The position numbers and the translations under genes are program-made. The notes under the pieces are model-generated. The model was not told where the DNA came from. It saw nothing but the letters and a program-made list of their open reading frames with translations, and made no database searches. Positions 788-3,773 of a DNA stretch of 64,000 nucleotides are shown here, piece by piece. Source of the stretch: Candidatus Moraniibacteriota bacterium (GTDB lineage Bacteria > Patescibacteriota > Minisyncoccia > Moranbacterales > UBA1568). How positions within the stretch are numbered: the stretch's first letter is position 1; each line of letters begins with the position of its first letter. The stretch covers positions 73,617 to 137,616 of the forward strand of contig JAQTRS010000002.1 in the NCBI GenBank assembly GCA_028711705.1, written 5' to 3'.

Positions 788-811
788 AAAAAAGCTCAGG
801 TCCGTCCTGAG
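788..811 (-). terminator. Intrinsic terminator (attenuator) in the metY leader
   Basis: Minus strand CTCAGG-ACGGA-CCTGAG followed by CTTTTTT, about 30 nt upstream of the metY ATG. Confidence 0.75.
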
Positions 812-845
812 AGTTCTTTCTTCATCTGCTATAACCGTGGCAGTT

Positions 846-950
846 CTACCAAAACCATAGCGAAAGAATCCTCGAGGATGACCCGAGCCTAGGCATTATG
901 CAGCACACTGTCTGCGTATTCACATAAGACATATTCTTTCTTTTTTCCAT
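846..950 (-). CDS. Putative leaderless leader peptide 2, MEKRKNMSYVNTQTVCCIMPRLGSSSRILSLWFW (34 aa)
   Basis: ATG lies 6 nt after the -10 box; tandem TGC TGC at 905-900 sits just before the 5' arm of the antiterminator. Confidence 0.65.
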   Translation of the reverse strand: MEKRKNMSYVNTQTVCCIMPRLGSSSRILSLWFW

Positions 951-956
951 ACTTGC

Positions 957-985
957 ATACTAACACTCCTCCCCACCCCACGCAA
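957..985 (-). promoter_or_regulatory. Sigma70 promoter for leader 2/metY
   Basis: TTGCGT(985-980), 17-nt spacer, TAGTAT(962-957), with extended -10 TGn. Confidence 0.65.
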
Positions 986-998
986 GGGACCTGTTTCA

Positions 999-1790
999 TT
1001 AGATGATATGCCCCCGCTGCGTATGCGTCCGGATATCGATTTCCAGCAGGGTATGATTCGGCATCGGCCTCCACATCGATTCCGGAACGTCCAACTTTTC
1101 CGAGCAGACCGCCATGACTTTCCCTTGGCTATTCATCGCCACATAGAGGGACAGATACTCGAACGAGCAACTCCCTTTGACGAGGGCATTCCTCTCATTG
1201 ACCTCACGCAATGCCCAGAGCTTTTTCCCGTCGCTCAGCAGGATATTGAGCGCCACATAATCATGATGCTGCCGTATATACGCGACCGTATCGATGATGC
1301 CGGCGCGGATATTTTTCGGATCGCCGGATATTTTCCGCAGATTACCCATAATGGAGAGGAAAAGGCGCTCCGTATCGCTCGTGCCCCGGACACAGGCCTT
1401 CATTTCTTCGGAAAGCGGAATGCTTTCGCTCCCAAACAACGTACCATTATGACACAGGCTCCAGTTATCGAGCAAAAACGGATGCGTGTTTTCCTCGGCG
1501 ACCGCTCCGATCGACTGCTTGCGAAGATGGACCATGCTAAGCTCCGGCACCTCCGCGCTTATTTTTTCCACCACCTGCCCATAGGAACTGTCCTTGGAAG
1601 CATCGGTCGCCCTCTTCGCTTTCTGAACAACCCGTCCATCCCGATAGCACACCATCCCCCATCCGTCCCGATGACCCGCCTCACTTCCCTCCATAACAAG
1701 ACCGCTCTCGGCGAGCGATCCGAATTGAATGAGCGTCGTTGCGAGGGAAAGCTTGGGCAATTGCTGTGTGAGCGCTAGTATACGGCACAT
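999..1790 (-). CDS. Class II glutamine amidotransferase-like Ntn hydrolase (YafJ/EgtC/Dug3 family)
   Basis: N-terminal MCR nucleophile Cys; H-x-DGWG, HLRK, NTHPF, HNGT and TSDTE motifs. Confidence 0.85.
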   Translation of the reverse strand: MCRILALTQQLPKLSLATTLIQFGSLAESGLVMEGSEAGHRDGWGMVCYRDGRVVQKAKRATDASKDSSYGQVVEKISAEVPELSMVHLRKQSIGAVAEENTHPFLLDNWSLCHNGTLFGSESIPLSEEMKACVRGTSDTERLFLSIMGNLRKISGDPKNIRAGIIDTVAYIRQHHDYVALNILLSDGKKLWALREVNERNALVKGSCSFEYLSLYVAMNSQGKVMAVCSEKLDVPESMWRPMPNHTLLEIDIRTHTQRGHII

Positions 1791-1809: not shown

Positions 1810-1837
1810 AAAAAGCCGATCCTTGTGAGACCGGCTT
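1810..1837 (-). terminator. Intrinsic terminator (attenuator) upstream of the Ntn hydrolase
   Basis: Minus strand AAGCCGGTC-TCACAAG-GATCGGCTT-TTT. Confidence 0.75.
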
Positions 1838-1862
1838 CGTATTATCATCAAAAGGATAACCT

Positions 1863-1949
1863 TTACTTTCCTGACAACAACGACAAACCGGTCTCACACA
1901 TACAGTTGAAACAGCTACGCATCGATTGTCGGGAAAAATAGGATTTCAT
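1863..1949 (-). CDS. Putative leaderless leader peptide 1, MKSYFSRQSMRSCFNCMCETGLSLLSGK (28 aa)
   Basis: ATG lies 6 nt after the -10 box; Cys codons 13, 16, 18 and Met codons 10, 17; the ORF overlaps the antiterminator strand 1898-1885. Confidence 0.7.
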   Translation of the reverse strand: MKSYFSRQSMRSCFNCMCETGLSLLSGK

Positions 1950-1955
1950 ACCGAA

Positions 1956-1984
1956 AGAGTATCATGAAAAGAATCGGGTGTCAA
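1956..1984 (-). promoter_or_regulatory. Sigma70 promoter for leader 1
   Basis: TTGACA(1984-1979), 17-nt spacer, TACTCT(1961-1956), with extended -10 TGn. Confidence 0.75.
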
Positions 1985-2731: not shown

Positions 2732-2849
2732 CCGCCTGTAGCTATGCGGTTATCATATATATATGACAACTTCGCATTGTATCACAATATTTATATTTTG
2801 TCCAGTACTCAAAAATCCACCGGGGACACCGGCGAATTTTCGGACTTTG

Positions 2850-3026: not shown

Positions 3027-3659
3027 TTATCTGGACGGCTCAGGCTCCCCGAAATCGAGTCCGAAACGCTTCTCTACCCAGTCCAAAATGCCCGGGATGA
3101 TATTGAAGACGATCGGGAAAGCATACAGGAAAAGCGCGGCCGGGATGGATATGAAAACCATCGCCATGCCCAAGGCGGTCATGATCGGCGTTAGGGCTAC
3201 GCGGATGGTCGACTGCCTGATCCGGCGTGCCGAAACGTGCTCCGTATCGATTTCGTCGGACACGAGGGCATAGCGGAGCATGATGTAGTTCACGACGCCC
3301 AAAAGGAAAATATGAAGGCCATAGAGAACGACCGCAAGCTTGGTATGAGCATAGCTTCCCAGCATATGCGTCGAGAACGGCACGAAGGCCATCAGGGCCA
3401 GATAGGCCATATTGATCTGGATCATGATGCGGTTGACGTTTTTCGTGAAGATATGGAAGAGCTTGTTATGCGACACCCAGAACATATCCAGCACGATAAA
3501 GCTCACCAGGTACGCAAGGAATTCCGGCGCGAGCTTGGTGAGTTCCTGCGAAAGCGATATCCCCTCTTTGAATTCAGGGAGGCGGAATTCAACCGCCAAG
3601 ATGGTCATGATAATGGCGAAGGCACCATCCAAAAGAGCTTCGAGTCGGTTCTTATTCAT
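3027..3659 (-). CDS. TMEM175-family potassium channel
   Basis: RLEAxxDGxFAIxxT N-terminal motif, FWxSH, about 6 TM helices; start refined to MNKNRL. Confidence 0.85.
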   Translation of the reverse strand: MNKNRLEALLDGAFAIIMTILAVEFRLPEFKEGISLSQELTKLAPEFLAYLVSFIVLDMFWVSHNKLFHIFTKNVNRIMIQINMAYLALMAFVPFSTHMLGSYAHTKLAVVLYGLHIFLLGVVNYIMLRYALVSDEIDTEHVSARRIRQSTIRVALTPIMTALGMAMVFISIPAALFLYAFPIVFNIIPGILDWVEKRFGLDFGEPEPSR

Positions 3660-3773
3660 GGGGATATCGATAAAAATAAATGATGGCAAGCATATGCATA
3701 GTATATCATGCTCCCTATTTCGGGATACAAAAAACTGCCGGGGGCAGTACTGAAGAAAACTATGGCATTATGA

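Follow-up and report, generated by a model that had tools for sequence, protein, structure and literature searches.

The leader of the metY gene in the window, by which we mean the whole 64-kb stretch of DNA analysed here, is predicted to be a transcription attenuator through which a translating ribosome monitors shortage of charged Cys-tRNA and Met-tRNA. Modelled folding of the leader with a ribosome on its upstream open reading frame (uORF) makes this combined sensing a fairly probable reading, and ribosome-read sensing of sulfur amino acids in some form is predicted with high confidence. The fold is real, and the attenuator is probably functional. Contig C9, from which the window comes, is part of a 1.16 Mb genome rated 99.5% complete; relatives have genomes of about 0.7-1.4 Mb, which is compatible with a CPR lineage. 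Elsewhere in the window a gene for a TMEM175-family potassium channel (3027-3689, minus strand) has tRNA genes on both sides. The elements of the metY leader are the following:

1 to 756, continuing to G000:C9:73098, minus strand: 5' part of metY, encoding an O-acetylhomoserine/O-acetylserine sulfhydrylase of 424 aa (TIGR01326)
788 to 811, minus strand: intrinsic terminator, a hairpin at 811-795 followed by C and U6 (terminator scan, folding)
792 to 890, minus strand: rod-shaped antiterminator, a 2:3 helix with an outer helix in which the terminator 3' arm is paired (minimum-energy fold, shuffles)
871 to 887, minus strand: predicted 1:2 protector hairpin CUCGGG/CUCGAG, -7.2 kcal/mol (folding)
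846 to 950, minus strand: leader uORF of 34 codons, MEKRKNMSYVNTQTVCCIMPRLGSSSRILSLWFW (translation of the open reading frame)
894 to 905, minus strand: control codons Cys16-Cys17-Ile18-Met19 (sequence, folding, register)
957 to 965, minus strand: predicted extended -10 element (TG-n-TAGTAT), 17 nt from the -35 hexamer and 6 nt before the uORF ATG
980 to 985, minus strand: predicted -35 hexamer TTGCGT (sequence, pattern match)

The position of the predicted -10 element, 6 nt before the uORF ATG, points to a leaderless start. A TAnnnT motif at this distance precedes 38 of the 601 genes here; the counts for the flanking positions are 7 and 17, and that for 8 nt is 30. The full -35/-10 pattern with a 6-nt gap occurs at three sites in the window, two of which belong to the leaders of metY and of the neighbouring amidotransferase gene; genome-wide it is not enriched at this gap (21 sites versus 26-56 at other gaps), so that the leaderless start keeps the standing of a prediction. 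The third promoter-like site with this spacing (2742-2812, minus strand) opens an 11-codon frame with one Cys and one internal Met, which precedes an unassigned 188-aa ORF and is followed by no evident terminator. Cysteine accounts for 0.86% of codons in the genome, and small ORFs with a Cys-Cys pair (CC) were found in 18 of 459 intergenic regions, the metY uORF being the only one of the leaderless type. A further frame of 12 codons, ending Cys-Leu-Met, is opened by a GGAGGAG 7 nt ahead of an ATG at 958 (920-972, minus strand). This Shine-Dalgarno-led frame (958-920) overlaps with both the predicted promoter and the beginning of the uORF and stops short of the rod, and could therefore be relevant only on read-through transcripts. 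The uORF peptide is absent from the protein collection searched and has no Pfam match, the leader has no second copy elsewhere in the genome, and its terminator pattern has no match in viral contigs.

The first-pass annotation had drawn 890-792 of the minus strand as one long imperfect hairpin that consumes both arms of the terminator. The helices it named are present in the sequence and in the minimum-energy fold, which pairs 890-880 with 792-802, 878-875 with 805-808, 873-870 with 809-812, 868-862 with 814-820 and 861-853 with 828-836, thereby capturing both terminator arms. The 103-nt piece containing the rod has a folding energy of -45.8 kcal/mol (z -5.39), and none of 200 shuffled sequences was as stable; the whole 211-nt leader region is weaker (z -1.99, with 9 of 200 shuffles as stable). 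The coordinates proposed for the end of the uORF (846), for the Cys16-Cys17 codons (905-900) and for the start of the rod 9 nt downstream of them were reproduced, placing the Cys codons outside the rod, the other end of which (792) is 36 nt before the metY ATG. The hairpin tip does fall at the uORF stop codon as had been proposed, but the 6-bp helix TGGTAG/CTGCCA drawn there would need a 2-nt loop; the fold instead has five pairs capped by the loop GAAC and leaves the stop codon's G without a partner. The terminator that the rod captures is modest (-7.9 kcal/mol, U-tract 793-788), and when the intervening RNA was shuffled 52 of 200 shuffles also blocked it, none as fully. On short transcripts the 887-871 hairpin forms first, with a probability of about 0.8, and this predicted protector gives the modelled leader the classical 1:2 / 2:3 / 3:4 attenuator layout.

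The plainness of this fold, and the way its position follows the codons, argue against a switch of the SAM type or of another kind that binds a metabolite or protein and in which the uORF is incidental. Among 20 outside loci scanned, 11 do have a SAM riboswitch ahead of metY; the leader studied here reaches the gathering score of no Rfam family, the SAM riboswitch and T-box models included, gives only chance-level matches at E<=10, and belongs to a genome in which MetK was not found. A binding switch is accordingly a most improbable explanation.

In the mechanism that we propose, transcription would start at the A of the uORF AUG (950), so that the ribosome would load on a leaderless message. 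With ample Cys- and Met-tRNA it would enter codons 20-34 and melt the inner rod; the freed 5' arm would be covered or folded on itself (887-871), the 811-795 hairpin would close, and RNA polymerase would halt at the U-tract about 30 nt ahead of metY. With a ribosome waiting at Cys16/17, the rod would zip from its tip and capture the 5' arm of the terminator. A ribosome waiting at Met19 would also cover segment 1, as in classical attenuators, and here the capture would be most complete. In either case, capture of this arm would let the polymerase read through into metY.

An equilibrium sweep, in which the ribosome footprint was masked codon by codon and the probability of the terminator read, agrees with much of this scheme. 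The terminator is off at every ribosome position up to that with Met19 in the A site and on at P-site codons 20-28, with a sharp switch between P-site codons 19 and 20. At equilibrium the sweep is thus in line with the first-pass proposals that a ribosome stalled at Cys-Cys permits read-through and that an advancing one lets the terminator form, the latter as far as codon 28. From P-site codon 29 to the stop codon, however, the 5' arm re-emerges and the outer stem re-forms; with the ribosome at the stop and its footprint alone masked, P_term is 0, the outer stem being favoured (-20.5 versus -14.7 kcal/mol). This return of the outer stem is the weak point of the first-pass model, and because of it termination with the ribosome parked at the stop codon is predicted to need either timing or the 887-871 protector hairpin. 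To reach the outer stem from that hairpin, the RNA has to pass a saddle lying about 9 kcal/mol higher than the hairpin, compared with 3.5 for closing of the terminator. While the terminator 3' arm has not yet emerged, the rod holds the 5' arm with a probability of 0.74-0.88 in a Cys stall and 0.86-1.0 in a Met stall, versus 0.06-0.13 with the ribosome at the stop; in a test admitting any upstream partner, the 5' arm is still 0.74 paired with the ribosome at the stop.

A second, two-state model takes the terminator 3' arm to be concealed in RNA polymerase, so that it pairs only in the terminator. Under this hidden-3'-arm model the Cys stall gives no antitermination (P_term 0.95-1.0), against what had been proposed for it, and Cys sensing would therefore depend on the outer helix or on kinetics. 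For a Met19 stall P_term falls from 0.97 to 0.20 as the footprint is lengthened from 12 to 17 nt, antitermination being seen with footprints of 15-17 nt (0.41-0.20). The best antiterminated state still has a P_term of about 0.2, and codons past 22 give about 1. Sensing at Met19 thus works in both folding models at longer footprints.

A further view of such leaders comes from cysK, a gene carried by 72 of the 319 genomes of the order and not found in the metY-bearing one. We examined 70 of the 74 listed cysK matches, 68 of which have at least 250 nt upstream. A uORF with CC or CxC precedes 45 of these 68 genes, as against CC small ORFs in 18 of 459 intergenic regions of the metY-bearing genome, and a T-box motif precedes 18; the two kinds of element are nearly mutually exclusive, overlapping once. 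The Cys-run elements (at L183 and L193-L242, families f5, f6, f8 and f9) include 43 leaders with a terminator, and the seven that were scanned had no Rfam match at gathering score. In 33 of the 43 the switch comes 2-4 codons past the last Cys, and the terminator is blocked by a stall at the last Cys in 32 of 40, compared with 29 of 1000 shuffles. Switching is seen in 36 of 43 leaders under the two-state model, but in only 9 of 40 in the any-upstream-partner test; leaders L236-L238 were left out of that test and of the covariation alignment, and included in the two-state model and the register. In an alignment of 39 leaders the antiterminator helix shows 80.4% pairing (67.5 when shuffled, at most 52.5 when slid) and carries 64 double changes versus 26.5 in shuffled data, figures that overstate the covariation because the helix was taken from the alignment itself and the kin are not independent. 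Of the 45 cysK leaders, 19 have a TAnnnT 6 nt upstream of the ATG, the starts having been chosen in a way that favoured this spacing. The T-box-like elements (at L184-L202, L219 and L243-L248, families f3 and f8) gave weak Rfam T-box matches at each of nine T-box-bearing loci (E 3e-8 to 0.064, below gathering score); in those of L186 and L191 a very short stem carries TGC in its loop, possibly a specifier. A model of the cysK-leader family searched against 107 family genomes returned five weak matches, none of them a Cys leader on inspection, and cysS of the metY-bearing genome has no such leader.

The metY leader shares with the cysK leaders the order of its segments (Cys run, 1, 2, stop, 3, 4, U-tract), a stop codon near the rod tip, a CUC/GAG core and the 6-nt -10 spacing that is often seen in them. 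It differs in that the cysK leaders have three or four Cys codons, almost never Met, and no outer helix. A covariance model of the cysK leaders did not recover the metY leader among its 7 matches with E<=5 (the second leader, before the amidotransferase, scored E 2.7), and the best local score of the metY leader against them was equalled by 43 of 400 shuffles and by 63 of 204 control terminators. Hence, by segment order the metY leader may work as the cysK leaders do, while its sequence similarity to them is not significant. One cysK locus (L207) has a look-alike of metY-leader segments 1-2, which is a hint only.

The register of the cysK leaders bears on which codons are sensed. In them the last Cys lies 11-22 nt before segment 2, whereas in the metY leader this distance is 25 nt for Cys17 and 19 nt for Met19; Cys17 thus falls outside, and Met19 inside, the sensing register of the 43 leaders, only one of which has a Met at the equivalent place. 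The first-pass idea of a Cys-sensing switch accordingly stands in its ribosome-controlled terminator and antiterminator, which are well supported, and is too narrow in admitting Cys only. A Cys-only attenuator, with Met19 incidental and MetY replacing the missing CysK, is an unlikely reading that nevertheless draws on several observations: a Cys stall blocks the terminator completely at full equilibrium, leaders before cysK in this order are Cys-only, searches of this genome gave no CysK, and TIGR01326 includes both sulfhydrylase activities. Two Cys codons are also enough in mycobacterial leaders, as far as these are described (10.1101/834739). Against it, Cys17 lies beyond the family register, the hidden-3'-arm model gives no antitermination for Cys and performs best around Met19, and metY leaders of other phyla combine Met and Cys codons. 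With Cys17 out of register and the Cys stall failing in one model, the combined Cys/Met sensor is the best reading. The mixed leaders of other phyla are those at Bacteroidota, Chloroflexota, Calditrichia and Nakamurella loci, recorded without a control count. At the Calditrichia locus (L034:1070-1360) a Cys4-Met3 leader with a terminator stands in tandem with a SAM-I riboswitch, and metY at L139 is preceded by a tandem pair of Met-rich uORFs, located upstream of the match at 1501.

The leader has a relative in a 924-nt contig of run X1, possibly the source run of the DNA analysed here; this contig aligns at 788-906 with 17 other letters and 4 gaps and within metY at 546-726 with 28 other letters. 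The gaps lie at 827-839, all 3' of the uORF stop codon, and the frame is intact. Neither the spacer 727-787 nor the sequence beyond 906 on the upstream side aligned, so the conserved block outside metY extends from the position of the Cys pair to the U-tract, and it is about as conserved as the metY coding sequence. A second relative, the ortholog P0002, has a 28-residue N-terminal extension in which 9 residues match the translation of 815-789, i.e. the terminator, which it thus appears to retain. Loci from two contig collections (160 in all) included none of the three closest MetY orthologs.

Two further explanations meet this conservation. In the first, the hairpin does no more than terminate the upstream gene, and metY is transcribed from a promoter of its own, the TATAAT that the first-pass annotation had placed 3 nt before the metY ATG and that is indeed present at 765-760, with the ATG at 756. 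The hexamer is perfect, and a TTGTAT lies 18 nt upstream of it. With sigma-70 geometry, transcription starts 6-7 nt after the -10 element, which here would fall inside or beyond the metY ATG. The spacer is unaligned in the relative, the matching codons of P0002 read His-Tyr-Lys, so that the final T of the hexamer is not conserved, and the rod would disable the terminator; an internal promoter is therefore very improbable. In the second, the attenuator has decayed or become detuned, and amino-acid supply no longer decides whether metY is read through or terminated, for instance on transcripts from the upstream gene. The naked leader RNA is fully antiterminated at equilibrium, the terminator scan has no entry between the amidotransferase stop codon and the metY leader, the pathway partners of MetY are missing, and a genome of the same genus has only a remnant of the amidotransferase. 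Detuning is rendered improbable by the conservation of 788-906 at the level of coding sequence with an intact frame, and by the finding that 25 of 40 cysK leaders are likewise antiterminated when naked.

MetY itself matches TIGR01326 with 636.9 bits against a cut-off of 495.1; the model spans both O-acetylhomoserine and O-acetylserine sulfhydrylase activities. An ortholog search did not find the gene in 318 other genomes of the order; a class-level search of 400 genomes gave only 7 partial matches of 48-51% identity, and a phylum-level search of 350 genomes gave 3 matches, none with a comparable leader. The closest database proteins are three of 85-89% identity, and the next, at <=74%, come from other phyla wherever these are named. 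Thus, metY was likely acquired laterally. The closest outside metY genes adjoin genes for MetA, a homoserine acyltransferase, for alpha/beta hydrolases read as MetX-like, for Rrf2 regulators or for CysK; on a contig labelled Micrarchaeota (L006) a 65% identical MetY adjoins an alpha/beta hydrolase. MetX, MetA, CysE, CysK, MetE and MetK were not found in the metY-bearing genome, so that the acylated substrate must be supplied from outside or the enzyme must catalyse another reaction. Some MetY enzymes make methionine directly with methanethiol. NusA is present in the genome and Rho was not found, which agrees with intrinsic termination.

The gene upstream of metY has a leader of its own:

999 to 1790, minus strand: class II glutamine amidotransferase (GATase_4; EgtC-like, below the EgtC cut-off; profile matches)
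1812 to 1838, minus strand: second-leader terminator, -15.4 kcal/mol (terminator scan, folding)
1863 to 1949, minus strand: second leader uORF, MKSYFSRQSMRSCFNCMCETGLSLLSGK, of the leaderless type (translation, small-ORF scan)
1956 to 1984, minus strand: predicted second-leader promoter TTGACA-17-TACTCT, 6 nt before the ATG (pattern match)

This uORF carries Cys-Phe-Asn-Cys-Met-Cys, and its 3' part is complementary to the 5' arm of the terminator. The folding sweep is a clean 1:2 / 2:3 / 3:4 series, in which termination prevails in the naked RNA (0.73-0.85), gives way to antitermination with a ribosome at codons 2-13 and returns with one at codons 16-26; with the ribosome at the stop codon the same doubt applies as for the metY leader. 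Going by these folds, expression of the amidotransferase is likely under the control of a leader built like that of metY. The Cys/Met codons of this leader suggest that the enzyme releases cysteine, e.g. from gamma-glutamyl compounds. Four other amidotransferase loci of the order had no clear matching leader. The amidotransferase locus L173 has a 5-Cys uORF of uncertain meaning, and G001, from the same genus, has just a 3' remnant of the amidotransferase gene (L175:1500-1620), with no metY found.

Attenuation by leader peptides is itself a known kind of control. As far as they are described in the source (10.1101/834739), E. coli trpL and Salmonella hisL share with the metY leader a uORF of control codons, the 1:2 / 2:3 / 3:4 alternatives and an intrinsic terminator. 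The metY leader differs from these in its sulfur amino-acid codons, predicted leaderless start and rod of about 100 nt with an outer helix, and also in that it reads through without a ribosome and that a ribosome at the stop leaves segment 2 uncovered. Ribosome-mediated attenuation has been proposed, as a prediction, for uORFC-8-2 before cysS of Rhodobacterales (PMC8632094); going by its published description, this resembles the metY leader in two tandem Cys codons at about positions 14-15, a preference for UGC and an intrinsic terminator, and is set apart from it by gene and lineage and by the extra Met codon and predicted leaderless start of the latter. For mycobacteria, Cys attenuation is reported as shown experimentally, at the translational level (10.1101/834739; PMC1262725), and the account gives two Cys codons as sufficient (10.1101/834739). 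Ms5788A and other mycobacterial leaders resemble the metY leader, within what these sources describe, in a uORF that carries two or more Cys codons in a row ahead of sulfur genes, leaderless in mycobacteria and predicted to be so for metY, and in a long stable duplex (10.1101/834739; PMC1262725). Ms5788A is described as hiding a Shine-Dalgarno site to control translation, whereas the output of the metY leader is an intrinsic terminator; the mycobacterial cys operons, as presented there, have no conserved terminator, and in the present case the metY start lies outside the fold (10.1101/834739). Pairing of the mycobacterial type, between the Cys tract and the ribosome-binding site, was not found in the metY leader, the rod of which excludes the Cys codons. 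In a literature search with thin coverage of subscription journals, neither attenuation or cysK leaders in CPR bacteria nor Met/Cys leaders of metY turned up as the subject of a paper. Such cases may figure in older comparative studies of attenuation.

Taken more broadly, the order may use two interchangeable tRNA-sensing devices for sulfur genes, namely leaderless Cys attenuators and divergent T-boxes, and the foreign metY may have received a native cysK-type attenuator that was retuned to methionine by four codons (Ile-Met-Pro-Arg) gained between the Cys pair and segment 1, a gain that would also have created the outer helix. We put this forward tentatively, as a scenario that is rather doubtful as a whole. 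If the retuning is true, it would be a visible case of an attenuator switching its amino-acid specificity and would point to coupling of ribosome and polymerase in CPR cells. The value of the metY leader lies in its lineage, in the tandem leader pair and in the cysK-leader family behind it, the 43 natural members of which, with their fixed codon-to-helix register, form a test set for leaderless, terminator-based Cys sensing. If true, these predictions would mark CysK, MetY and the amidotransferase as active supply routes, and would mean that reduced genomes usually seen as amino-acid scavengers keep watch on charged tRNA and control their few remaining sulfur enzymes.
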